Positions 3,890 through 58,020 of a stretch of 64,000 nucleotides of DNA are shown in pieces (position 1 is the first letter of the stretch; every line of letters starts with the position of its first letter). The position numbers were made by a program, and so were the translations under genes. Origin of the DNA: a virus (Duplodnaviria > Heunggongvirae > Uroviricota > Caudoviricetes); IMG/VR virus record IMGVR_UViG_3300028422_001686; one strand, written 5' to 3'. The notes below the pieces were generated by a model. The model saw nothing but the letters and a program-made list of their open reading frames with translations. It ran no database searches and was not told the origin of the DNA.

Positions 3890-4040
3890 AAGAGATAATT
3901 TTCTTTTTAGACATTTTTTCAAGAATATAGTGGAGTTCGCAGTCTATTGGTTTTTTTAACTTCGACATTTAACCAGTAGATTATGAGCTCCATTATATTT
4001 TTATTCAATAAAATCCTTAACAATAACAAAAGGATATCGT

Positions 4041-13691: not shown

Positions 13692-14212
13692 GGGGGTGAA
13701 TTAGTTTCGACACGGTTACGAGGTTTGTATTTGCATGTCCCGGATGGTTCTTGGCCGGGTTATCAATGAACTAAATCATAATTGGCAACGATTATATCGA
13801 ACTTCAAGCTGCTGCTTAATTAGCATTCAGTTGAATGAGGGCCTTACACCAATAACAAAAAGTAAGGGACATACGGACAGGTCTAATAATCGTCTAAAAA
13901 GTTCCCACGGAACGTTGACTCTGTGGCGTTGTTTTCCTTGTGTACAGTAAACAAACAAGGTGGTGGAGGGAACCATGTGTTCCCCTATTGAGTATCTTGT
14001 GACCAGGATATTCAGGTTGTGTGATGAGAGCAACTTTAAAGATTTTGAAACATGAGGCATCTAGTCATCAATTATGTGAAGGAATGGCCCAACCTTGTTA
14101 AAAAATGGTTACTATTTGCTTGGATAGTATTGGCATCAAAAACAAGCTAAACATGTAGACGATATTTATTGAGTAGTTGTGGACGCGGGGGCAGGGCCCG
14201 CCACCTCCACCA
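13692..14212 (+). ncRNA. ssrA: tmRNA (ssrA-like), unusually long at ~520 nt
   Basis: The 5' end GGGGGTGAATTAGTTTCGACACGG matches the tmRNA consensus GGGGNUGAUUCUGGAUUCGACGGG. The 3' end has a T-arm-like stem GCGGG/CCCGC and an acceptor 3' strand CACCTCC followed by A and CCA, which pairs with the 5' GGGGGTG. A tag-like frame at 13784-13818 ends GCT GCT GCT TAA and reads (G)NDYIELQAAA*. The region is GC-richer than its flanks and has no credible ORF. Confidence 0.6.
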
Positions 14213-20331: not shown

Positions 20332-20408
20332 GCGCTCTTAGCTCAGTCGGTTAGAGCTCCCGGCTCATAACCGGGTGGTCATGTGTTCAAGTCACATAGG
20401 GCGCACCA
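20332..20408 (+). tRNA. tRNA-Met/fMet (CAT)
   Basis: Acceptor GCGCTCT pairs with AGGGCGC. D-arm GCTC-AGTCGGTTA-GAGC. Anticodon stem CCCGG with loop CTCATAA. T-arm ATGTG-TTCAAGT-CACAT. The 3' end is ACCA. Confidence 0.8.
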
Positions 20409-20411
20409 TAA

Positions 20412-20568
20412 TTGCCCTTTTAGCATATATCAGGAAATGCACAGGAAGCCAAAAAGAGAAGCAAGAACAGCAAGTACGATCTTTAGATGTGTTTCTTGCC
20501 TATTCTGCTATGAAGCTAGTAGCTAGGTGAAATGGGAACTGGAGTTCAAATCTCTAGATTGGGCACCG
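20412..20568 (+). ncRNA. candidate ~155-nt ncRNA with a tRNA-like 3' end
   Basis: No ORF. It ends in a T-arm-like TGGAG-TTCAAAT-CTCTA followed by GATTGGG-C-ACC and TTTTTT. No matching 5' acceptor strand or D/anticodon arms could be found. Confidence 0.3.
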
Positions 20569-20593
20569 TTTTTTAAGTAGAGAGGTTGCTGCT

Positions 20594-20839
20594 ATGAATA
20601 AAGCAAAAGTTATTATTTATGATGCAGATAATAAAGAGGTTATGTCTTTAATATGTACTGATGTACGGTATACAATTGTTAATGACTTAAAAACACTTCC
20701 TGTTTTAAAGAATAAAATTGGAATGAAAAGCCCCCTGTATTCAACAGGAGCATTTATAGACTTTAATGGATATATTCCTAGAGATAAAGAGTCTATAAAC
20801 AAAGATGTTGATCAAATTTTAAAGGAAAGTTATGAGTGA
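20594..20839 (+). CDS. hypothetical protein
   Basis: RBS AGAGAGG upstream of an 81-aa ORF. Confidence 0.4.
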   Translation: MNKAKVIIYDADNKEVMSLICTDVRYTIVNDLKTLPVLKNKIGMKSPLYSTGAFIDFNGYIPRDKESINKDVDQILKESYE

Positions 20840-21434
20840 TGACAATAAGGTTTTAGTTATTGTTGATATGCAATATGATTTTATTAACAAAGATGGAGCT
20901 CTTTATGTTGGAGAAAAAGCTGAAAGCATTATTGAGAACATAGTAGCTTTTAAAAAACTTTTTAAAAAAGTTGTATTTACTCGAGACATTCATCCTTGCT
21001 TGAATGGAACAGATACTCAAGATGAGATAAATGAGTTTACTCAGTTTGGTAAGCATTGTCATGATGTGAAGACAAGTGCAATTGATTCTCGATTGATAGA
21101 TCAAAATGATTTCACTGGGAAAGAAGAGGTTATTTTTAAAAGCTCATTTGCAACATCTATGGCTGAAAGATTTTTTACTAGAGTAGATCCTCGAAAAGCC
21201 GAGTTTCATGTGACAGGTGTCTGTACCCATATTTGTGTTCATGATGTGATTGCTGAAATTGTCAATTACTCTAAAAACATATATAACAGATTACCTAAAA
21301 TCTATTTATATAAAAATATGATTGGTGACTTTGATGCTGAAATGGAAGCATTTGCAATTAAACGTCTCCAAAAATTATATGGAGTTCAAATGGTTGAATT
21401 TGCTCATGTAGGAACTATGGGGATAGAAAAATGA
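20832..21434 (+). CDS. pncA: nicotinamidase / isochorismatase-family cysteine hydrolase
   Basis: VLVIVDMQYDF is the N-terminal nicotinamidase motif. A catalytic Cys lies in VTGVCTHICVHD. Confidence 0.7.
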   Translation: MSDDNKVLVIVDMQYDFINKDGALYVGEKAESIIENIVAFKKLFKKVVFTRDIHPCLNGTDTQDEINEFTQFGKHCHDVKTSAIDSRLIDQNDFTGKEEVIFKSSFATSMAERFFTRVDPRKAEFHVTGVCTHICVHDVIAEIVNYSKNIYNRLPKIYLYKNMIGDFDAEMEAFAIKRLQKLYGVQMVEFAHVGTMGIEK

Positions 21435-22213
21435 AAGAGATAAGATACAAAAAATTTTCTAATGGACAGGTGTTTGCCCTTAAAACAAGTGACGGATATC
21501 CAATAGAAGTAACTGAAACTTTTCTTCCTTTTTATACAAAAGACGCAATAGGTAGGAAACAGAATTTTTTAGATTCAGAAGCTTTAGGTGATCGATCTGA
21601 AAGATGGATGATTGGTGTTTCTTGTATGTCTGGCTGCCCTGTTAGATGTAAGTTCTGCGCTACTGGAAATCTTCCTAAATATAGAAATCTAACTGGTCAG
21701 GAAATTTTTGATCAAGTTGAATTTGCTATTGAAAAAGGTGGAGCGAATCCGCTTGAAGCAAAAGAATTTAAGATTAATTATACAAGAATGGGTGAGCCTT
21801 TTCTTAATATCGAAGCGATTAAAGAGGCTATTACGTTAATTGATGCCAAGTATCCTAATACTCATCATTATGTTTCTACTATTGGAATTAAGGGGTCTGA
21901 CTTTAGTTGGATCAAAGACAATGTTACGCTTCAATTATCTCTTCACTCTTTAGACGAAGATAGAAGAAACGATTTAATTCCTTTTAAAAACAAGATGTCT
22001 ATCAAAGAACTTGGCGAGGTTGTTACTCAGAGTAATCTTAAAACAACCTTAAATCTTACTTTAGTTGATGAAAAAGATTTTAATATTGATTTATTGAAAG
22101 AGTATTTTGACCCCAATAAGTTTTTTGTGAAGCTCAGTCCTATTAATGTGAATGATGTTTCAGAGAAAAACAATATGGGTGAAGGTATTATAAAAGGTGT
22201 TAATCTTCTATAG
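21431..22213 (+). CDS. radical SAM enzyme
   Basis: The motif CMSGCPVRCKFCATG contains CxxxCxxC. Confidence 0.55.
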   Translation: MKEIRYKKFSNGQVFALKTSDGYPIEVTETFLPFYTKDAIGRKQNFLDSEALGDRSERWMIGVSCMSGCPVRCKFCATGNLPKYRNLTGQEIFDQVEFAIEKGGANPLEAKEFKINYTRMGEPFLNIEAIKEAITLIDAKYPNTHHYVSTIGIKGSDFSWIKDNVTLQLSLHSLDEDRRNDLIPFKNKMSIKELGEVVTQSNLKTTLNLTLVDEKDFNIDLLKEYFDPNKFFVKLSPINVNDVSEKNNMGEGIIKGVNLL

Positions 22214-22223
22214 GAGGTATTCT

Positions 22224-22346
22224 ATGATTGAGATTAAAAACCAACTAGAATCAGCAGGATATGACTATGCCGTAGCTGTTGCTACTCAATCTGAGATTGA
22301 AAACGGCGCAGCTTGTGGACAATTGTCTATCATTACTGAGGATTAG
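22224..22346 (+). CDS. 40-aa small peptide (MIEIKNQLESAGYDYAVAVATQSEIENGAACGQLSIITED)
   Basis: RBS AGGAGGT lies 7 nt upstream of the ATG. The gene sits directly downstream of the radical-SAM gene and directly upstream of a strong terminator. It is too short to appear in the ORF track. Confidence 0.35.
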   Translation: MIEIKNQLESAGYDYAVAVATQSEIENGAACGQLSIITED

Positions 22347-22352
22347 TTAAAG

Positions 22353-22376
22353 GAGCTTCGGCTCCTTTTTTATTTA
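22353..22376 (+). terminator. intrinsic terminator
   Basis: GGAGCTTCGGCTCC hairpin followed by TTTTTTATTT. Confidence 0.65.
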
Positions 22377-22387
22377 AGGAAAAAGAA

Positions 22388-22741
22388 ATGAATAAAGTTA
22401 AATCGTTTTTAAAAGATGTCTATATGGTGGTAGTATTTTCTCTTCTTTCATTTGTACTAGGAGTCTTAATAGTTCGTCCTGATGCTGAGAGGTATAAGAG
22501 GATATATGATCTTTATAATAGTTGCTATGTGGAAAAGCCTACTGTTACAAAGTATAAGGCCGAAGATTTAGTTCAATATGAAACAGGTTATCTTCCCGTA
22601 AAAAATGCATTTGGAAAAATCGACAAAATTAATGTTGAATTTGACAATCAAAGAAAAGAGATCAGTTATTTTATTAATGGACTTCTTGTTCCTGAAAAAT
22701 GGATTCTAAATAAGGTTGTAATAGTTAAAGAAAAGGAATAG
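22388..22741 (+). CDS. hypothetical membrane-anchored protein
   Basis: N-terminal transmembrane helix (VVVFSLLSFVLGVLIV). Confidence 0.45.
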   Translation: MNKVKSFLKDVYMVVVFSLLSFVLGVLIVRPDAERYKRIYDLYNSCYVEKPTVTKYKAEDLVQYETGYLPVKNAFGKIDKINVEFDNQRKEISYFINGLLVPEKWILNKVVIVKEKE

Positions 22742-22744
22742 TTC

Positions 22745-23650
22745 ATGAGTGAATTATTAAAAGTAGATGAAGATCTTAAGTCGTTTGCAAACTTTCTTTA
22801 CTTTTTAGGTGGAGATCTTTCTTCCTATAATTTTTCAGAGTATACCCTTCTAAAGAAAGAAGCTAATAGTCTTTTAACGGATATTGACAATGACAATATT
22901 GAACATGGTTGTGATATCTTATGTTCACTTAAAGCTTATAAAAAAGCTTTAAGTAAAGTGCTTAGAGAGTATAAAAAAAGAGGTTGGGACACTCTGCTTT
23001 CAGATAAATATTTTTTTAAAAGTAAAAAATGGTTTGAGGATTTCGTTAAAAGAGCCTATCGTTTTGGTGACATGGATGATGATGAAAGAGATGATATAAA
23101 CCAGTTGGTTGAAGAAATCTATAGAAACAGTAAAAGAGAGAAAATGAATGCTGATCTAAAAGGTGAGATTAAAGAGGCTAGCAAGCATATGGATGCTGTA
23201 GGTAAAGCACAAACAACTCTTTCTGATCTAAACTCTTTAACTATGATTGATGATTACAGCTTTCAGTCTGGTACTGTTGAGTATGATATGAGTCATGTAA
23301 AATTTGAATGTAATTTAGATGGGGTTGTACCCCTAAAAGATAATGAGGAGAAAAAGATGAGTGCAAATTTAATTAATAAAATGAACGGCTTAAAGAAAGG
23401 TGAAGAGCATGTTGTTGATTTAGTTCAAGAAACTGAAGAGATCAAAACCGTCTCAATTAGTCTTGAGAAAATCCTAAGTAACTACTCTAAAGTTAAGCAA
23501 ATGAAGCTTGGAGAGAAAGCACTTCTCAGAAAACTTTCTGTTAATGATGACAAAGTTACCCTAGAAATCTCTGTAGGAGATGTAGAAAGAGAAGAAAATG
23601 CTGTTGTATTAGCAAATTTGAACTCTATTCTAACTCAAGAAAAGAAATAA
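22745..23650 (+). CDS. hypothetical protein
   Basis: 301-aa acidic coiled-coil ORF. Confidence 0.5.
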   Translation: MSELLKVDEDLKSFANFLYFLGGDLSSYNFSEYTLLKKEANSLLTDIDNDNIEHGCDILCSLKAYKKALSKVLREYKKRGWDTLLSDKYFFKSKKWFEDFVKRAYRFGDMDDDERDDINQLVEEIYRNSKREKMNADLKGEIKEASKHMDAVGKAQTTLSDLNSLTMIDDYSFQSGTVEYDMSHVKFECNLDGVVPLKDNEEKKMSANLINKMNGLKKGEEHVVDLVQETEEIKTVSISLEKILSNYSKVKQMKLGEKALLRKLSVNDDKVTLEISVGDVEREENAVVLANLNSILTQEKK

Positions 23651-23805
23651 TATGGGTTTCTTAAAAGACAATTACCATAAAATTGCTATAGGTTTTGCTT
23701 TAATGGTAGCCCTTTATTCTGGGGCCTTAATTTATTCTGCGTATAAATTCGGCTCTTTTATGGAAGGGCTGAATTCTTATTACATGAAGCATTCAGAGGT
23801 TGTTA

Positions 23806-24948
23806 ATGAAAAATTATATGATTGAACCAATTATAACAAGCTTATTAGATAATGATCTTTATAAGTTTACTATGCAGTACGCAAGTAGACATATAGGGCA
23901 TGCTTATATGCCACGTAGAGGCATTGTAAAGTATAAGCTGTACAATAGAAGCAAAAACAGTCTTTTAGGAATAAAAGATTTGCTGGAAGCTCAGATTGAT
24001 ATGTTATGTCAATTGAGATTTACAAATGAAGAGATTAACTATCTTCGTACATTAAATCTTTTTGATGAGGACTATCTGTGCAAGCTCAAAAATTTTACTT
24101 TTTTTCGTGAAAACATTATAGTTGATACACGTGAAGGTGACCTTGCTCTTGAGATAAAAGGTGCATGGTATAGTACAATTCTTTTAGAAGTACCATTACT
24201 GGCAATTATTAGTGAACTTGTTTCTCATAAAAGTTACGCTTCAAATCCAACCCCACAAATGGGTGCATTTGATGGAAGTTATTCTATTTATGATTTTGGA
24301 ACAAGAAGACGACATAGTTTTGCTCATCAAAAAGAAGTTTTAACTGGACTTAAAGGAATGCCAGCATTTAAGGGCACTTCTAACGTCTATTTTGCACGAT
24401 TGTTAAACCTTCCAGTGTTTGGATCTATGGCACATGAATGGATGCAATATCATCAAATTTTTGGTATAGAGCAATTCCAAGAATTTGCGCTTAACGGTTG
24501 GTCTGACACTTTTAAAGGAAAATGTGGGATAGCTTTAACTGACACTATTAACATGGATTCTTTTTTAAAAGAGTTTGATGGAAAACTAGCTCGTATTTAT
24601 GATGGCTGTCGCCATGATTCAGGCGATCCTTTTATTTGGGGAGAAAAACTACTGTCTCACTATATGGAATTAGGTATTGATCCAAGATTTAAAACGTTAG
24701 TTTTTTCTGATGGTTTAGACTTTAATACCATAAAGGATATTCAAGAAGCTTTTGCTCATAGAGTAAGAGTCTCATTTGGAATTGGAACTAAGCTAATGAA
24801 TAGATCCATTGACCCTCCATCGATTGTAATTAAAATGGTTTCTGCAGAAGGACAGCCTGTGGCGAAGATTTCTGATGAACCATTTAAGACAGTTTGTGAA
24901 GACTTGAATTACTTAAAAGAAGTAAAAGAAAGACTAAATGTTATTTAA
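23806..24948 (+). CDS. pncB: nicotinate phosphoribosyltransferase
   Basis: The N-terminus MIEPIITSLLDNDLYKFTMQ matches the NAPRTase signature (LLDTDLYKLTM). Length is ~380 aa. The ATG at 23806 follows GAGG. Confidence 0.7.
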   Translation: MKNYMIEPIITSLLDNDLYKFTMQYASRHIGHAYMPRRGIVKYKLYNRSKNSLLGIKDLLEAQIDMLCQLRFTNEEINYLRTLNLFDEDYLCKLKNFTFFRENIIVDTREGDLALEIKGAWYSTILLEVPLLAIISELVSHKSYASNPTPQMGAFDGSYSIYDFGTRRRHSFAHQKEVLTGLKGMPAFKGTSNVYFARLLNLPVFGSMAHEWMQYHQIFGIEQFQEFALNGWSDTFKGKCGIALTDTINMDSFLKEFDGKLARIYDGCRHDSGDPFIWGEKLLSHYMELGIDPRFKTLVFSDGLDFNTIKDIQEAFAHRVRVSFGIGTKLMNRSIDPPSIVIKMVSAEGQPVAKISDEPFKTVCEDLNYLKEVKERLNVI

Positions 24949-25164
24949 GGAGATAGTTAGGTGAATACATTTTAAGCAAAAAAGTATTTGACAATAATAT
25001 CTTATGTATTTTATAATACGTGTATGAATATGAATACAAAACCATCCATTAATAATTATTGGAATACTGACTCAGAGGAGACAGTATAGGGTTTAGTTTT
25101 ATATTATATTCATAAATAAAGCTAAAACCCTAACCTTAAAACAGTTAGGGTTTTTTGTTTTTGC

Positions 25165-25241
25165 GGGGGTGTAGTTAAGTTGGTTATAACGCTACCCTGT
25201 CACGGTAGAGGCCACGGGTTCGAGCCCCGTTACTCCCGCCA
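25165..25241 (+). tRNA. tRNA-Asp (GTC)
   Basis: Acceptor GGGGGTG pairs with TACTCCC. D-arm GTTA...TAAC. Anticodon stem CTACC with loop CTGTCAC. T-arm ACGGG-TTCGAGC-CCCGT. The 3' end is GCCA. Confidence 0.75.
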
Positions 25242-25254
25242 TATTTTTAATAGT

Positions 25255-25331
25255 GTCCTCTTAGCTCAGTTGGTGGTAGCAGCTGACTGTTAATCAGCAG
25301 GCCTTTGGTTCAAATCCAAAAGGGGACGCCA
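25255..25331 (+). tRNA. tRNA-Asn (GTT)
   Basis: Acceptor GTCCTCT pairs with AGGGGAC. Anticodon stem GCTGA with loop CTGTTAA. T-arm TTTGG-TTCAAAT-CCAAA. The 3' end is GCCA. Confidence 0.75.
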
Positions 25332-25335
25332 TTTT

Positions 25336-25421
25336 GCGTAGGTGGCCGAGTGGTTAAAGGCAGCAGACTGTAAATCTGCCCTCTTCGGAGTACGGTGGTT
25401 CAAATCCACCCCTGCGCACCA
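25336..25421 (+). tRNA. tRNA-Tyr (GTA), with long variable arm
   Basis: Acceptor GCGTAGG pairs with CCTGCGC. D-arm GCCGAGTGGTTAAAGGC. Anticodon stem GCAGA with loop CTGTAAA. T-arm GGTGG-TTCAAAT-CCACC. The 3' end is ACCA. Confidence 0.75.
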
Positions 25422-25424
25422 TTT

Positions 25425-25550
25425 AAAGTTGTTATAGGTGAGAACGGACAAAGCCAAGCAACCCGCACCTGAGAAAAGAATGCAACGGCTAGGGAGCCAT
25501 CCTGAAGGCACGGATCATCCGTGAAAAGCTGACAGCCAGGAAAGTACTGG
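25425..25550 (+). ncRNA. candidate structured small RNA between tRNA-Tyr and tRNA-Glu
   Basis: ~130 nt with no ORF. It contains the hairpins AGGTG...CACCT, GGCTAGGGAGCC and CACGGATCATCCGTG. Confidence 0.3.
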
Positions 25551-25556
25551 CAATAT

Positions 25557-25634
25557 GCACCCATCGTCTAATCAGGTTCAGGACACTACCTTTTCACGGT
25601 AGGTATCCGGGTTCAAATCCCGGTGGGTGTACCA
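25557..25634 (+). tRNA. tRNA-Glu (TTC)
   Basis: The sequence aligns arm-for-arm with E. coli tRNA-Glu. Acceptor GCACCCA pairs with TGGGTGT. Anticodon stem CTACC with loop TTTTCAC. T-arm CCGGG-TTCAAAT-CCCGG. The 3' end is ACCA. Confidence 0.75.
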
Positions 25635-25655
25635 TTTTAAATAGAAGATTAGTAT

Positions 25656-25731
25656 CTCCGTATAGCGCAGCTGGTAGCGCACAATTTTTGGGAAGTTGGG
25701 GTCGTAGGTTCAAATCCTACTACGGAGACCA
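25656..25731 (+). tRNA. tRNA-Pro (TGG)
   Basis: Acceptor CTCCGTA pairs with TACGGAG. D-arm GCGC-AGCTGGTA-GCGC. Anticodon stem CAATT with loop TTTGGGA. T-arm GTAGG-TTCAAAT-CCTAC. The 3' end is ACCA. Confidence 0.7.
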
Positions 25732-25740
25732 AATAAAAAA

Positions 25741-25817
25741 GGTAGCTTAACTCAGTTGGTTAGAGTGCTAACCTGATAAGTTAGAAGTCCCAAGTTCAAA
25801 TCTTGGAGTTACCACCA
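25741..25817 (+). tRNA. tRNA-Ile (GAT)
   Basis: Acceptor GGTAGCT pairs with AGTTACC. D-arm ACTC-AGTTGGTTA-GAGT. Anticodon stem CTAAC with loop CTGATAA. T-arm CCAAG-TTCAAAT-CTTGG. The 3' end is ACCA. Confidence 0.75.
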
Positions 25818-25838
25818 TAAATTTTGTAAACAAGTTTT

Positions 25839-25914
25839 GCCTTTACTTGGTAGAGTGACTCAACGGAGCACTGATAAAGCTCAGAGGTTAGGTTAAAATC
25901 CTACAGTAGAGGCA
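25839..25914 (+). tRNA. degenerate tRNA-like element (possible pseudo-tRNA, anticodon-loop-like CTGATAA)
   Basis: Acceptor-like GCCTTTA pairs with TAGAGGC. An anticodon-like hairpin GAGC-(A)CTGATAA-(A)GCTC is present. The T-arm is weak (TAGG-TTAAAAT-CCTA) and there is no regular D-arm or encoded CCA. Confidence 0.3.
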
Positions 25915-26318
25915 ATTTAAGGGTTTCCCTTGCTCAGGAAGCGCGCGAAAACGCACTTAAATAATGAGCTAAAATATAGTGTCACCTACAACGAACTAGA
26001 TAGCGCTAGTCGTGCTTAGTGGTGAGGTTGATAGGCTGCTATCTTCTAATAGATAAAAAGGAGAAAAAATGATAATTATTCATTTTTTAGGGATAATGTG
26101 CATTCTTGTTCTTGTATCTATTTTAATTATGTCATTAGTTGATTTTATAAGGAGGCTTGTATTTGCGGACTATACCAAAAAGAAAACTCCTGTTATTGGT
26201 CGTTCATTTGATCAATTAAAAATTCTGAAAGATCTTGAAGAAACTTATAATAATCATAACCCTAAAACTTGTAGGGTTGATTGTTGTATATTATGTTATT
26301 CAGAGAGAAATGAAAAAA

Positions 26319-26393
26319 GGGCATCTAGCATAACTGGTAGTGCAGCGGAGTCCAAATCCGCGTGTTTGGGTTCAAGTCCTGGGGTGCCCGCCA
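26319..26393 (+). tRNA. tRNA-Trp (CCA)
   Basis: Acceptor GGGCATC pairs with GGTGCCC. D-arm GCAT-AACTGGTA-GTGC. Anticodon stem GCGGA/TCCGC with loop GTCCAAA. T-loop TTCAAGT on a weak, GU-rich T-stem. The 3' end is GCCA. Its layout aligns with E. coli tRNA-Trp. Confidence 0.6.
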
Positions 26394-32638: not shown

Positions 32639-32857
32639 ATGTCAGAGGGAACAAACAACTTGCTTGAAAAAGCAGTTCAAGAAATGAATGAAACTGATGC
32701 AAAAGGTGCAGTTGGTCAAATCAAAAATTTGATCAGAGGCATTAATGCAAACGATGAAAAAATCGCTGTGCTTGTAAAGCACAATGATGACCTTAAGAAA
32801 CAAATCAACAAGCTTGTTTCTAAGGGTGGATTGACTGCAGATAAATTTGCAGCTTAA
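32639..32857 (+). CDS. hypothetical protein
   Basis: 72-aa ORF. Confidence 0.4.
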   Translation: MSEGTNNLLEKAVQEMNETDAKGAVGQIKNLIRGINANDEKIAVLVKHNDDLKKQINKLVSKGGLTADKFAA

Positions 32858-32898
32858 TTTAAATTAAGTGCTTCCTCCTTTTGGAGGAGGCACTCATT

Positions 32899-33375
32899 AT
32901 GAGGTGTGTTATGTCTGTTACTCCAAGTATTAGTGAATGTCCATTTTGTGGTCACAACTCCACTTCCTTTTCTACTGTATCTTATGATAGTGGTGAGCTC
33001 GACTATATTATTACGTGTGATAATGAAGAGTGTGGAGCATCAATGTCGTTAGATGCAAAGCCTGAATTGGTTAGTAGAAGTGAATTAGAGGCCTTAGAAG
33101 AACTAACTAATAAGTGGAATAAGAGATATAATCCATATGATAATGTTATTAAGTTTCCTATAGAAAGGCCTATCCCTTTAAAAGAAGCCCAAGAAAACTA
33201 TAATGAACAAGAGAGCATTAAGGGAAAAAGAAATCAGATATATAATGATATTCTTTCAGTTAAAGGAATGTATCCACGATTTGCAAATGCTAAAATGCAA
33301 CAAGATGCTAAATCATTTTTTAGATCTTTATGGCAAGTTCATTCAGGAGGTAAAGATGAGGGGTCGAATCAATAA
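32899..33375 (+). CDS. Zn-ribbon protein
   Basis: CPFCGH...CDNEECG motif. RBS GGAGGAGG. Confidence 0.4.
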   Translation: MRCVMSVTPSISECPFCGHNSTSFSTVSYDSGELDYIITCDNEECGASMSLDAKPELVSRSELEALEELTNKWNKRYNPYDNVIKFPIERPIPLKEAQENYNEQESIKGKRNQIYNDILSVKGMYPRFANAKMQQDAKSFFRSLWQVHSGGKDEGSNQ

Positions 33376-45605: not shown

Positions 45606-45827
45606 ATGCTTGATAAAATTGTTAGTTTAATTGAGTCTACATCTAGGCTTGTTGATTCATTGAGTGAGTACTCAAAGGAAAGAGAAAGAGAAAGGCTTGA
45701 AGTGCTATATCAAGAGGCTAAGAAAAAAATTCTTAAGAAAAAAGTAATTAATTCTAAAGATTATTTAAAGTGTGAAGAGTTAGATAGCGCTTTGTTTTTC
45801 TTAAAAGAAGGGAAAGATGATGACTGA
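45606..45827 (+). CDS. hypothetical protein
   Basis: 73-aa ORF. Confidence 0.35.
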   Translation: MLDKIVSLIESTSRLVDSLSEYSKERERERLEVLYQEAKKKILKKKVINSKDYLKCEELDSALFFLKEGKDDD

Positions 45828-46005
45828 AGAAAAGATGAAACGATTATTTAGAGAGATATTTCATATGTTAAAATCTTCAGAGTATTCAGATGACTTAAAT
45901 ACTATCTTATTTGAAGTAGGGTCGAATAGAAAAGAGCTGGATGAAGCATTAGTCTATTTAAGTTGGACTGGAGAAGAAGATAGAATGGGGCAATAAGGAG
46001 ATTTT

Positions 46006-46521
46006 ATGATTTTGTCTTATGTAATTTGTTTTATTGCTATGCTGATAGCTCATTATATTGGGGATTATTTTCTTCAATCAAGAGAGGTCGCTGTAAATAA
46101 AAGTACAAGTACCAAACACATGTTTAGTCATTTTACTGATTTGTACTGTTCTTTCACATTGGCTTTTATTATTCTTGTAAGCATTGGTTTTCTTTTTAAT
46201 AGTCCTTGCTTTCTTAAAGCAGCAGATATAATGTTTTATATTGATCTTTTGTATTGTATTGTTCATGTTATTCAAGATACTTATATTTGGCGATTCTATA
46301 AAAAAGTAGTGATTAAAAGAGTTGAAAGAGGTTTAAGGTATGAGCCGGTAATTGGTTTAACAACCTTTGAAAAGAAAAGAACTGAAGCTTTGTCAGCTTT
46401 TTATTCAGATAAGTTGTATGCTGAAGATAAATTATTCTATGATTTTATTGGTCTAGATAATTTACTGCACATATTGACGTTAACTGGTTTAATTGGGGGT
46501 TTTTATGCATTGTTTAACTGA
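46006..46521 (+). CDS. hypothetical multi-pass membrane protein
   Basis: At least four hydrophobic segments. Confidence 0.45.
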   Translation: MILSYVICFIAMLIAHYIGDYFLQSREVAVNKSTSTKHMFSHFTDLYCSFTLAFIILVSIGFLFNSPCFLKAADIMFYIDLLYCIVHVIQDTYIWRFYKKVVIKRVERGLRYEPVIGLTTFEKKRTEALSAFYSDKLYAEDKLFYDFIGLDNLLHILTLTGLIGGFYALFN

Positions 46522-46670
46522 GGCTTTTGATGCAATATGTGAATCATTTGTAGGGCCATTTAGGGTGATGCATGACTTTGTAGATAAGTTCTATCACATT
46601 GTTACCTGTAAAGGGTTGACTTTAATTGAATCGTGACTATAATACCTTTTTAACATAAAGAGGAGAATTA

Positions 46671-49564: not shown

Positions 49565-49751
49565 CTGCTGTAAAAAAGAAGTAGGTGAACTTTATTCAGC
49601 AAGTGAATATAAGGATTTTGAACCTAAAAATACGCCTGAAGAAGAAAAATTAAGACTAAAAAGGAATATTTTTGCTTTAAAAAATGTAGATAAGTGGTTT
49701 TGTCTAACATGTTTTGAAAGTGGAATATCACATACTAGAGTAAAATTTTAG
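49533..49751 (+). CDS. hypothetical Zn-ribbon protein
   Basis: CSCC...CLTC motif. Confidence 0.35.
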   Translation: MSNQSQDFICSCCKKEVGELYSASEYKDFEPKNTPEEEKLRLKRNIFALKNVDKWFCLTCFESGISHTRVKF

Positions 49752-49791
49752 GATAAATGTAAACATTTAGATATTTTTTACTTTTTAGTAT

Positions 49792-50025
49792 TATGTAAAT
49801 TACATTCCCCTGAAACAGGGTAAGTGATTCCTTCAGGAATGCTTGTACGGGTATCACTAATCGATCACCCTCCCCAGCATTCCACCAGGAATCACATCCC
49901 CTCCCGTCTATAGACGGGAAGGTTTCAGGGGATAGTAATTTACCAGGTGGCCAGATCCAAAACCGGTACCCGAGACGGATACCTGCTGGCCGCCTGACCC
50001 TTTTAGGGTTAATAGAAACTGGAGT
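49792..50025 (+). ncRNA. GC-rich, highly structured non-coding element (candidate ncRNA or cis-regulatory leader)
   Basis: A 10-bp long-range helix CCCCTGAAAC...GTTTCAGGGG encloses two ATTCC-N4-GGAAT hairpins and a CCCGTC-TATA-GACGGG hairpin. An 11-bp helix CAGGTGGCCAG/CTGGCCGCCTG follows. There is no ORF and GC content is well above the flanks. Confidence 0.4.
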
Positions 50026-50030
50026 TTTTT

Positions 50031-50228
50031 ATGATAAGGATGTTTAATATTCTTCTTGGAAAAGTATTCAATAAGTATTGTGATTCTAACATGATAGGGC
50101 TATGTCATGAGTGTTTTGCTATACTTAAAGACAACAATGTTGCATATTGTAATTTATGTAAAAAACACGTTTATAAATATCGTCTTATAGTTAAAACTAT
50201 TATTAAGGGAATCTTTTATGACAAATAA
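50031..50228 (+). CDS. hypothetical Cys-rich protein
   Basis: 65-aa ORF. Confidence 0.35.
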   Translation: MIRMFNILLGKVFNKYCDSNMIGLCHECFAILKDNNVAYCNLCKKHVYKYRLIVKTIIKGIFYDK

Positions 50229-51142: not shown

Positions 51143-51511
51143 ATGGAAAGTAGAAGTAAAATTAAAACAGGCGATGTTTATCAAATTCGCAAAAGCGGAA
51201 GAAACTACATTGCTATCGGTAAAGCAAAAGACAATGCAGGAAATGTTTACATTTGTTCTGTGTTAAATGGAAATGTTAATCCAGATGGAACTATGAAAGT
51301 TTATACAAACAGAAAGCCATCTATTCATTTTCATAAAGCACGTAATGTGTATCGTGTTCATTCTACACGTGAAGTTGATTACGGGACTTTTGTAAGTGCA
51401 AATCCAAAGATGGTTAAGTTGGTACGTCCTATGGCTCAAAATACTGGCGTAGAGATTGTTTCACCAAACATTCCATATCAATTGAAAAATCTATTTAAAA
51501 TTGTAAGCTAG
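51143..51511 (+). CDS. hypothetical protein
   Basis: RBS AAGGAGAA upstream of a 122-aa ORF. Confidence 0.45.
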   Translation: MESRSKIKTGDVYQIRKSGRNYIAIGKAKDNAGNVYICSVLNGNVNPDGTMKVYTNRKPSIHFHKARNVYRVHSTREVDYGTFVSANPKMVKLVRPMAQNTGVEIVSPNIPYQLKNLFKIVS

Positions 51512-51553
51512 TTGTTTCAACTATCTATAATTAAGTAGATTTTATTATTTCTT

Positions 51554-51900
51554 TTACCAGCTAACTTTCAGGGACCAGGAATCCTTTCAGATCATGATTG
51601 TGAACAATCTCTCCTGAATGAATCCCAGGACCCTTCAGTAGCTGGTAAAAATTGTAAACTTGGTCAGGAGGAGGTAACTCCTCCTGAAAAAGTTTTTTTC
51701 TATTTTAAAAAAAATCTGTAGTTATATTTAATGACAGTAAGAAGTATCTTCTTATTTTTAAATACTTACTACTGTCAAACATGTTAACGTAAACATCTCA
51801 TCCTTCACTAATCGTTCGGAAGGAGATGTTAACGTTTACATGTTTGGATCCTTCAGGATGTCTTCAGTCATCCTGGAGGATCACCCCTTGGGGTGATTAT
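51554..51900 (+). other. ~350-bp non-coding region packed with long inverted repeats and hairpins
   Basis: Five elements are present. First, a perfect 10-bp outer stem TTACCAGCTA/TAGCTGGTAA (51554 and 51639) enclosing repeated GGACC-N-TTCAG units. Second, the hairpin CAGGAGGA-GGTAAC-TCCTCCTG (51665-51686). Third, an imperfect hairpin at 51735-51774. Fourth, a 22-bp inverted repeat (20 of 22 paired) AACATGTTAACGTAAACATCTC...GAGATGTTAACGTTTACATGTT (51778-51844). Fifth, the hairpins GGATCCTTCAGGATG...CATCCTGGAGGATC and ATCACCCC/GGGGTGAT (51846-51899). Confidence 0.5.
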
Positions 51901-51958
51901 AATTAGTTATTTTATGACACAATGTTGTGTCTATATTTGTTGCTATAAGGAGGAAACT

Positions 51959-52132
51959 ATGGCACGTGTACTTTATTTTGAAGGTCAAGAACTTCCACTA
52001 CAAGACGGTATGACTATTGATGAAGCTAAAGAATGGGCTCAGGTAGTATTTCCAGGTCTTGAATCTGCTGAAGGCTATGAAGATGAAGACGGAAACTACG
52101 TCTTCACAAAGAAAGCCGGAACTAAAGGGTAG
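51959..52132 (+). CDS. small protein ending in Gly; candidate ubiquitin-like (beta-grasp) protein
   Basis: 57 aa, ending in the C-terminal residues ...KKAGTKG. The strong RBS AAGGAGGAAACT lies just upstream of the ATG. It is the first gene downstream of the structured region and upstream of the E2/JAB/E1 genes. It is absent from the ORF track at this start. Confidence 0.35.
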   Translation: MARVLYFEGQELPLQDGMTIDEAKEWAQVVFPGLESAEGYEDEDGNYVFTKKAGTKG

Positions 52133-55943: not shown

Positions 55944-55956
55944 GGTGGAGTTTCGT

Positions 55957-56535
55957 ATGTCATATATAAGGCCTTTAGTTTTTGAAGACCCTTTAGAGTC
56001 TGAGACAAGAAATGATATTTCTATCCTAGAAAATCTTGGTGATGAATCATTTCTTTATGATATTTTTTATGACAGTAGGATTGGCGGGGTATGTCATCAC
56101 TATGCCTTTAATGGATTTAATGTTGGAATCTATTTTAGATCTAATGGAGTTATATGGACAAATGCAGTTTGTTTTTTTGATAGAAATTATTATTATCTAG
56201 GAATGAATGCGGATGGGACACTGAATACTTCACCAGTTAGTCGTTATGGAATACCATCAAGATTACATCTGACTTTACTTGTAGATGGAGATCCAGTAGA
56301 GTTTTTTCAAAATCAAAACTGTACTGTTCACTTCTTGCCTGGATCCTATAATTTAGATTTTTTAAAAAATTATACAGAAGAAACTGACCTAGACCTTGAA
56401 GAAGAGGATAGAGTTTCAGCAGAAAAGAAACTTCAATCATCTCTCTTGGCTTATTTTTTAAATATAGCTGAATATTTTGGTGGAGTTATCGATGGGCAAG
56501 ATGTATCGGATTCAGACAACCTCACAGAGTTTTAA
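55957..56535 (+). CDS. hypothetical protein between the E1-like gene and the RT
   Basis: ATG at 55957 preceded by AAGGTGGAG. About 192 aa. Its end overlaps the RT start. Confidence 0.45.
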   Translation: MSYIRPLVFEDPLESETRNDISILENLGDESFLYDIFYDSRIGGVCHHYAFNGFNVGIYFRSNGVIWTNAVCFFDRNYYYLGMNADGTLNTSPVSRYGIPSRLHLTLLVDGDPVEFFQNQNCTVHFLPGSYNLDFLKNYTEETDLDLEEEDRVSAEKKLQSSLLAYFLNIAEYFGGVIDGQDVSDSDNLTEF

Positions 56536-57377: not shown

Positions 57378-57704
57378 ATGCAAGTTACAGATGCAAGTTT
57401 TTTTCCAGTTAATAATGGCCCAACAGTTGCTTTGGGGCAAGTTATTTTAGATAAAGTCTTGAAGCTTAATGTAAAGATCATGAATGGTAAAAATGGTCTC
57501 TGGGTTGCTTTCCCTTCAAAATTAAGTCAAAAAGATAATAAATATTATTCGGATTTTAATTTTATTGATAAAGATGCACATGCTGATTTTTCTACAGCTG
57601 TTCTATCTGCTTATCATACAACTAATTCTCAAGGAAATGGTAGTCCTTTAAGTAGAAACAGTAACTCTGAAGCAGAGATTATGCAGGATGACTTACCATT
57701 TTAA
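57378..57704 (+). CDS. spoVG: SpoVG-like nucleic-acid-binding protein
   Basis: MQVTDASFFPVNNGPTVALGQVILDKVLKLNVKIMNGKNGLWVAFPSKLSQKDNKYYSDFNFIDKDAHADFSTAVLSAYH is collinear with B. subtilis SpoVG ([33 protein letters not shown].EY). Confidence 0.6.
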   Translation: MQVTDASFFPVNNGPTVALGQVILDKVLKLNVKIMNGKNGLWVAFPSKLSQKDNKYYSDFNFIDKDAHADFSTAVLSAYHTTNSQGNGSPLSRNSNSEAEIMQDDLPF

Positions 57705-57724
57705 GCTTCACTTTTTAGAGACCT

Positions 57725-57860
57725 AGTAGAACATTATAAAAACTACTAGATGTTCGCTTTAATGTAACCGCCAAAACCGAAAGGCTTTGGCGTTCCGTTT
57801 GATCTGAAGGCATTACAGTCAAAGCAGGATTCCTGCCTACTCTATTTTGGGTAGGCAGGA
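57725..57860 (+). other. hairpin-rich non-coding segment downstream of the RT/SpoVG genes
   Basis: The helices are CTAGTAG...CTACTAG, CGCCAAA-N10-TTTGGCG and a perfect 9-bp CCTGCCTAC...GTAGGCAGG. Confidence 0.35.
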
Positions 57861-58020
57861 CAAATGGAAGAATGAAGGGGTGATAAGATGACAATAGAAA
57901 AAAAGTTTAAAGAACCTGAACAATTAGTTTTATGGGACTTTAAAAATAACGATGATAAAGATAGAATTAGAGGTCTTAATACTAATGGCATTCTTTATGA
58001 TGACCAATGGTTAGGAACTA

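Follow-up and report, generated by a model that had tools for sequence, protein, structure and literature searches.

T7-like phages carry RNase III processing hairpins of 20-30 bp between their genes. The intrinsic terminators and structured 5' leaders of phages and Firmicutes are built of one or two stem-loops, an intrinsic terminator being recognized as a GC-rich stem-loop with a U-run directly after it on the transcribed strand. At the DNA level, CcpA cre sites follow the consensus TGWNANCGNTNWCA (PMC8091064). Retron non-coding RNAs (ncRNAs) have paired terminal repeats, a1 and a2, and, between these, one to three msr hairpins followed by a long msd stem of 10-50 bp; a conserved branching G lies immediately 3' of a1, and the ncRNA co-evolves with a reverse transcriptase (RT) having the motifs NAXXH and VTG (Mestre et al. 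2020, PMC7736814). Here we compare these systems with a non-coding spacer of 447 nt in a 64,000-nt stretch of a tailed phage (Caudoviricetes; IMG/VR record IMGVR_UViG_3300028422_001686), the whole stretch being called the window hereafter. The spacer occupies positions 51512-51958, between a gene for a 122-aa protein and the gene for a 57-aa ubiquitin-like (Ubl) protein that opens an operon with a retron-type RT, and contains a chain of seven stem-loops, H1 to H7, over ~350 nt.

The best explanation, to which we assign a probability of about one half, is that a conserved boundary between transcription units has undergone a lineage-specific expansion in this spacer, which would consist of a terminator and a structured, possibly operator-bearing leader and would not be a component of the RT system. 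The first-pass annotation of this DNA had offered three options, namely a structured RNA resembling a retron msr/msd or serving as processed guide or scaffold, a replication origin, or a regulatory region for the operon. The last is the best supported of the three, through the H2 terminator and the cre-type palindromes of H4, both recognized by sequence.

On the plus strand the spacer folds at -157 kcal/mol, against -94 ± 5.5 kcal/mol in dinucleotide shuffles (z = -11.39), and on the minus strand z is -14.52; it is thus far more stable than the shuffles, none of which folded as well. The sub-blocks 51552-51700 and 51732-51898 give z = -7.0 and z = -9.3, respectively. When local folding was scanned in 100-nt windows over the whole 64 kb with correction for G+C content, the spacer formed the largest outlier cluster (12 windows), followed by 49801-50020 (7 windows) and 32761-32960 (6 windows). 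All five structures that the first-pass annotation had placed in 51554-51900 were recovered by inverted-repeat search and folding, to which H3 and H7, absent from its list, are added here. Its description of the leader as non-coding is borne out, no open reading frame (ORF) of at least 20 aa in the spacer having a credible ribosome-binding site. Its remark that spacers elsewhere in this genome are short is roughly true, in that the 36 gaps of at least 35 nt in the window have a median length of ~100 nt, but six of them, including the tRNA cluster, are about as long as the spacer or longer. The usual spacer in this phage is a single GC hairpin with a T-run, then a ribosome-binding site.

The stem-loops fall into two blocks (Table 1). 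In block A, H1 is followed by H2, whose core (51664-51687) is a 10-bp GC stem, CAGGAGGAGG / CCTCCTCCTG, with six of ten pairs G-C and a 4-nt loop, GUAA, of the GNRA tetraloop type. Pairing of AAACTT with AAGTTT extends the helix to 51656-51695. The U-run reads AAAAGTTTTT after the core and TTTTCTATTTT after the helix extended to 51695. Because a GNRA-capped GC stem is joined directly to a U-run on the transcribed strand, H2 is, by sequence pattern, a canonical intrinsic terminator. The closing helix of H1 pairs 51552-51563 with 51639-51650 (TTTTACCAGCTA / TAGCTGGTAAAA), which is 12 bp here versus 10 in the earlier count, and encloses 75 nt with GGACC and TTCAG motifs; H1 has 4 G-U pairs and folds at -49.0 kcal/mol on the minus strand versus -36.6 on the plus strand. 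Upstream of both, H0 folds at -15.5 kcal/mol (plus strand) and -9.8 kcal/mol (minus strand). In the proposed mechanism, H2 would terminate transcription arriving from the upstream genes, and the preceding H1 would shield the 3' end, or else H1 and H2 would be released together as a terminator-capped RNA of ~150 nt.

Block B follows after the 32-nt AT-rich segment and consists of H3 to H6, which abut without spacers over 167 nt, and then H7, the Shine-Dalgarno (SD) sequence and the Ubl start codon. The arms of H4 (51776-51799 / 51823-51846) are paired at 22 of 24 positions and each contains GTTAACGT. H5 folds at -23.3 kcal/mol on the plus strand, where it has one G-U pair, and at -18.8 on the minus strand; its arms are near-palindromes themselves, ATCCTTCAGGAT / ATCCTGGAGGAT (palindrome ATCCTNNAGGAT), with 22 bp spacing. 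H6 shares 4 nt with the 3' arm of H5 and is not followed by a proper U-run. Block B would act as a long structured 5' leader of the Ubl-E2-JAB-E1-RT-SpoVG operon, gating transcription or translation into it. A promoter may lie inside the AT-rich segment, although no sigma-70-type promoter scoring at least 10/12 was found in 51700-51731. We infer the transcript ends, the promoter position, protein binding and the regulatory effect. By eye, several leader stems are built of SD-like (GGAGG) and anti-SD-like (CCTCC, CCTTC) tracts. The sequence TGGAGGATCACCCCTTGG at the H5/H6 junction (51874-51891) is, by eye, similar to the 3' end of 16S ribosomal RNA (GGAUCACCUCCUU) minus one base.

Table 1. Stem-loops of the spacer and flanking features, in window positions.
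Feature	Positions	Strand	Description	Basis or remark
122-aa gene	51143..51511	+	Upstream flanking gene	Left edge of junction; no Pfam or PHROG match
H0	51486..51543	+	Weak AT-rich stem-loop over stop codon of 122-aa gene	Inverted repeat and fold; least certain element
H1	51552..51650	.	99-nt imperfect hairpin	Perfect 12-bp closing helix
H2	51656..51699	+	Candidate intrinsic terminator	Terminator scan; fold -24.4 kcal/mol
AT-rich segment	51700..51731	+	~80% A+T, between the two hairpin blocks	Base composition
H3	51732..51777	+	Stem-loop, 16-nt arms 88% complementary	Inverted repeat and fold
H4	51776..51846	.	71-nt hairpin	24-nt arms and inner pairs
H5	51847..51882	+	14-bp stem, 8-nt loop	Inverted repeat and fold
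H6	51879..51898	+	Short GC stem, 8 bp, CUUG tetraloop	Palindrome around CACCCCTTGGGGTG
H7	51916..51931	+	6-bp stem-loop GACACA AUGU UGUGUC, just 5' of ribosome-binding site	Fold
Ubl start	51947..51961	+	Shine-Dalgarno AAGGAGG and ATG of Ubl gene	Read from sequence
Ubl gene	51959..52132	+	57-aa ubiquitin-like beta-grasp protein, first of operon	Orthologs 42-54% identity in all relatives

In comparison with known terminators and structured leaders, the spacer is alike in the GC stem, GNRA loop and U-run of H2, in its place between co-oriented gene groups, in the single hairpin that relatives carry at the same junction, and in the position of H7 just before the ribosome-binding site. It is unlike them in having seven stem-loops over 350 nt instead of one or two, in being confined to this phage, and in that no promoter was identified. 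By analogy, long imperfect intergenic hairpins on a long co-directional transcript may also recall the RNase III hairpins of T7-like phages, yet the spacer hairpins have no sequence or family relationship to them.

The G-U pairs give a mixed strand signal that is not significant, in that H1 and H3 lean to the minus strand and H0 and H5 to the plus strand; for H5, its G-U pair brings a gain of 4.5 kcal/mol over the minus-strand fold. The loops are more informative as to strand. The 64 kb contain 44 GC-containing tetraloop hairpins on the plus strand, and the loop is unusually stable in only three, namely the UUCG terminator at 22349, H2 (GUAA) and H6 (CUUG), and none of 31 minus-strand hairpins has such a tetraloop. 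These strand-specific tetraloops, together with the U-run of H2, support a plus-strand RNA function of at least H2 and H6.

The same blocks could instead be one or two free-standing small RNAs (sRNAs), ~51540-51705 with H1 and H2 and ~51732-51915 with H3 to H6, each ending in a stable GC hairpin, whose targets, in the host or the phage, would be reached in trans and without involvement of the operon. We regard this as unlikely, yet as the most probable of the alternatives. Both blocks are very stable alone by the sub-block scores given above, a GC stem with a tetraloop cap forms the end of each, block A is laid out as a classic sRNA, with structure first and an intrinsic terminator after it, and a further orphan candidate for a structured RNA is present in the window at 49752-50030. 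Nevertheless, no promoter was found for them, no Rfam family matches, no homolog occurs in related phages or public collections, H6 has no proper U-run, and H1 is more stable on the opposite strand.

The operator-bearing part of the explanation concerns H4. Each arm holds a 16-bp near-palindrome, ATGTTAACGTWWACAT, at 51781-51796 and 51826-51841, 45 bp apart; the two copies read ATGTTAACGTAAACAT and ATGTTAACGTTTACAT, and this palindrome occurs in the 64 kb in these two copies only. In the right arm, 51827-51840 (TGTTAACGTTTACA) fits the cre consensus exactly, and 51782-51795 in the left arm is one position off. The consensus has two matches in the window versus 0.08 expected, one of which is the H4 right arm. 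When public collections were searched with the palindrome pair, tandem arrays of the same palindrome were found. An array in a Halalkalibacter genome has a LacI-family gene next to it and a Gfo/Idh/MocA oxidoreductase gene downstream, and an array in an Atopobiaceae genome lies between divergent PTS EIIC and LacI-family genes; this adjacency to LacI-family genes is an association in two bacterial genomes.

Like CcpA cre and LacI operators, then, the H4 arms are 16-bp palindromes with a central CG, and H4 may double as a pair of putative LacI/CcpA-type operators. A host LacI-family repressor at these palindromes could act on the DNA to block or modulate the read-through that reaches the operon. 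A Firmicute-like host, in which cre sites operate, fits the strong SD sequences of the phage, the TTGACT-17-TATAAT promoter upstream of GroES/GroEL, and the Firmicute St85-family RTs, which are the next-nearest homologs of the phage RT. That near-consensus sigma-70 promoter lies at ~46620-46650 on the plus strand, in the spacer upstream of the GroES/GroEL region, and suggests that at least some phage genes are read from host sigma-70-type promoters.

The conservation of the boundary was studied in relatives of the phage. The closest homologs of the RT have 33-41% identity and lie on metagenomic contigs of up to 205 kb, from which ten loci (L001-L010), representing eight distinct phage contigs, were compared. 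They have a common gene order of GroEL, small ORFs, a ~120-aa gene, Ubl, E2, JAB, E1, a variable ORF, RT and SpoVG, the module being always downstream of GroEL in the eight phages. Orthologs of the 122-aa gene (31-41% identity) have the same position in L002, L004 and L006-L010. The junction between the flanking orthologs measures 29-143 nt in six relatives; in L007 and L010 it measures ~300 nt, with a real small ORF conserved between both and no unusual structure (z = -2.4 and -1.7). No hairpin array was found at the orthologous junction in any of the eight phages (8/8), and neither nhmmer nor blastn found a homolog of the leader in the ten loci. A single hairpin is present there in six of the eight, with a canonical T-run in three (L002, L007, L010), and in L002 a hairpin similar to H7 precedes the Ubl gene. 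Since most relatives carry one hairpin at this place, the junction looks like a conserved transcription-unit boundary, and the hairpin array looks like an expansion peculiar to this phage among eight relatives.

The restriction to one phage also favors another view, in which the array is non-functional palindromic DNA, an insertion remnant or template-switch product tolerated in a non-coding gap. This needs no assumed function, and other long hairpins exist in the window, e.g., at 3901-4020. However, no second copy was found in the window or in public collections, hence there is no dispersed mobile element, and seven abutting well-formed hairpins with two optimal tetraloops and one terminator tail have more order than would be expected of decay or mutation by itself. 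We consider this explanation improbable. A decayed gene was tried and rejected, tblastn of the relatives' small ORFs having matched flanking genes only, as was a dispersed repeat or miniature inverted-repeat transposable element (no other copy in the window). A type I toxin-antitoxin locus was likewise rejected, there being no credible small hydrophobic ORF with a ribosome-binding site.

Searches for closer relatives gave little. Among annotated phages there are no DNA-level relatives, and at the protein level the RT and GroEL matches all have <35% identity. In viral contigs, locus searches with the 260-aa protein of the operon or with the RT alone returned nothing, and the exact H4 arm has no match; the H1 stem pattern gave 18 matches there, rejected as chance and mostly in coding sequence. 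Homology among the structured gaps 3' of GroEL in the relatives was suspected by eye, was not supported by blastn, and was discarded; there are no tRNA genes in those gaps.

When the 122-aa flanking protein was used as the query, the sole result was a chimeric contig (ENA ERZ926216, 1311 nt). It joins the window pieces 51233-51723 and 45706-46244, each 100% identical, and has an unrelated GC-rich end. We take the joining sequence, ATAACTTCGTATAGCATACATTATACGAAGTTAT, to be a loxP linker, and the contig looks like a mate-pair library artefact. Since its pieces match the window at 100% identity, it shows that project PRJEB22775 contains the same phage; no paper mentioning this project was found in the literature.

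Several results weigh against the boundary explanation. No LacI-type gene was found in the 64 kb, and the sites of H4, which are candidates by sequence only, form one extended inverted repeat in which the flanks outside the palindromes are complementary too (8/8 bases). This complementarity weighs against a pure operator view, because two independent operators would not need complementary flanks. Between H2 and the Ubl gene there is no convincing sigma-70 promoter, only -10-like hexamers, which are expected by chance in DNA of 75-80% A+T. The minus-strand fold of H1, with its 4 G-U pairs, is the better one by 12 kcal/mol, and H3 also leans to the minus strand, on which it is slightly more stable. 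The leader offers no sequence variants for covariation, the only other copy being 100% identical. Finally, one terminator is enough for a boundary, and neither the need for seven hairpins nor their restriction to this phage is explained by the model.

Some of these observations would suit a purely DNA-level element, i.e., clustered palindromic binding sites or cruciform DNA for host or phage proteins, with the RNA hairpins incidental. The arms of H4 and H5 are self-palindromic, with spacings of 45 bp and 22 bp, the H4 palindrome can credibly be taken by its sequence for a LacI-family operator, and the G-U pairs have no consistent strand bias. Against this, the stable tetraloops of H2 and H6 and the U-run of H2 are strand-specific, the arms of H1, H2, H3, H6 and H7 are not self-palindromic, and the flanks of H4 pair beyond the operator cores. 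Such an element is doubtful, ranking below the sRNAs and above non-functional DNA.

The replication-origin option of the first-pass annotation, here taken together with a packaging signal, is the least probable of the readings considered. A large AT-flanked structured non-coding region would be in keeping with it, but no iterons were found (the only 9-mers that recur are an overlapping pair within the H4 palindromes) and no DnaA boxes, the cumulative GC skew is monotonic through the region without a turn, and no replication or terminase genes adjoin.

Given the operon downstream, the retron option had to be weighed as well. In that case the leader would be the msr/msd template RNA of the operon RT, with H4 as the msd stem and the RT priming from the branching G. 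The RT is of retron type: it matches PADLOC retron RT models with E = 1e-53 to 1e-36 and carries the hallmarks NATKH, YADD and VTG. The spacer lies at the 5' end of its operon, 4.5 kb upstream of the RT gene, and combines shorter hairpins with H4, a long and stable stem whose length falls within 10-50 bp. There is no ncRNA directly upstream of the RT, that site being taken by a coding ORF that is not unusually structured. In St85-type retrons, the nearest named family, the ncRNA is placed ahead of the accessory gene and the RT, which also counts for this option.

The points on the other side are more specific. All eight relatives keep the RT, its neighbors and both flanks, yet have at the junction 29-143 nt or a small ORF, too short for msr/msd; the array does not travel with the RT, because it is absent from all of them. 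No terminal inverted repeat encloses msr hairpins and an msd stem. In a search for a1/a2 helices of at least 8 bp spanning 90-340 nt, the only strong helix was the 12 bp of H1, within which lies one continuous 75-nt hairpin and after which comes ACT instead of a branching G; the rest were low-complexity AT or purine/pyrimidine helices. H3 then H4 can be read as an msr/msd layout, but H5, H6 and H7 are then without a closing helix, and the intrinsic terminator H2 precedes, inside the putative RNA. With Rfam 15 at gathering score over the whole window there was no match in the leader, and at E <= 10 the leader gave just chance microRNA-type hairpin matches far below threshold. The msr/msd-like suggestion is thus not supported by the relatives, by the a1/a2 and branching-G search, or by Rfam. 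The array is probably not the template RNA of the nearby RT, and a retron of the described kind is highly doubtful. A diversity-generating retroelement was also tried and rejected, there being no repeat of the template/variable (TR/VR) type near the RT.

Hardly less doubtful is that the array is a lineage-specific RNA partner of the RT / Ubl module, e.g., a template or primer of unconventional type, an analogue of msr/msd that lacks canonical a1/a2, or an acquired scaffold RNA, the equivalent in the relatives being elsewhere. The gap 3' of the SpoVG-like gene is a candidate for that equivalent. This gap (57705-57887, 42% G+C) is structured, with z = -5.8, and is the only non-coding gap in every family locus, at 97-358 nt; no sequence homology of the gap was detected between loci, and there is no Rfam match (57650-57950). 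It is the best remaining candidate site for an RT-associated ncRNA.

The operon itself bears out the Ubl/RT label of the first-pass annotation and starts where that had placed it, with the Ubl ATG at 51959, which is 59 nt past 51900; it encodes Ubl, E2-like, JAB, E1 and retron-type RT proteins. Its order is 57-aa Ubl, 91-aa, 260-aa, E2-like, JAB, ThiF-type E1, 196-aa ORF, RT and SpoVG-like. The AlphaFold2 model of the 57-aa protein has a predicted local distance difference test score (pLDDT) of 83 and a beta-beta-alpha-beta-beta order, and in the PDB the protein most resembles, though weakly (E = 0.26), 8tz0_E, which is the Ubl chain of a bacterial E1-E2-Ubl complex. The 91-aa and 260-aa proteins belong to no known family, the E2-like and JAB proteins have weak Pfam matches, the ThiF-type E1 has E = 7.7e-21, and the Pfam SpoVG assignment of the SpoVG-like protein comes from the relatives. 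The ORF between E1 and RT (55945-56535, plus strand; 105-196 aa across loci) has almost no detectable similarity between loci, whereas identity among its neighbors is 30-40%. As RNA it has no unusual structure (z from +0.2 to -1.1 in seven of nine loci), and it may be a fast-evolving specificity or sensor subunit. No paper was found linking retron RTs with SpoVG or with phage Ubl/E1/E2/JAB modules.

The window has ~33% G+C, genes on the plus strand, a tmRNA, eight tRNAs and a GroEL gene, which fits a large phage. The tmRNA (Rfam, 94 bits) and the tRNA genes (Met, Asp, Asn, Tyr, Glu, Pro, Ile, Trp) lie in regions 13692-14212 and 20332-26393. At 3921-4002 on the plus strand, a near-perfect hairpin of ~31 bp stands in a 151-nt spacer (z = -7.5), and very long hairpins are therefore not confined to the leader. 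A second orphan structured element occupies 49752-50030 on the plus strand, with 43% G+C, z = -8.7 and a Y-shaped fold closed by ~19 bp, GTAAATTAC...CCCCTGAAAC / GTTTCAGGGG...GTAATTTAC. It has no Rfam match (49700-50080 at E-value threshold) and no homolog in the relatives; it has the motif TCCTTCAGGA in common with H5 of the leader.

The more important result is a by-product and a negative one: the retron-type RT of this phage family has no recognizable msr/msd beside it. The more interesting subject is the adjacent conserved Ubl-E1-E2-JAB-RT-SpoVG module, in which a ubiquitin-like conjugation system is coupled with a retron-type RT and SpoVG. The leader itself is an unusually elaborate yet ordinary kind of element, and its main value is as a handle on the control of an unusual operon. 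If it is true that a host LacI/CcpA-type regulator binds H4, the phage would tie the expression of its Ubl-conjugation and RT genes to the carbon status of the host, which would be a neat case of a phage reading host physiology.

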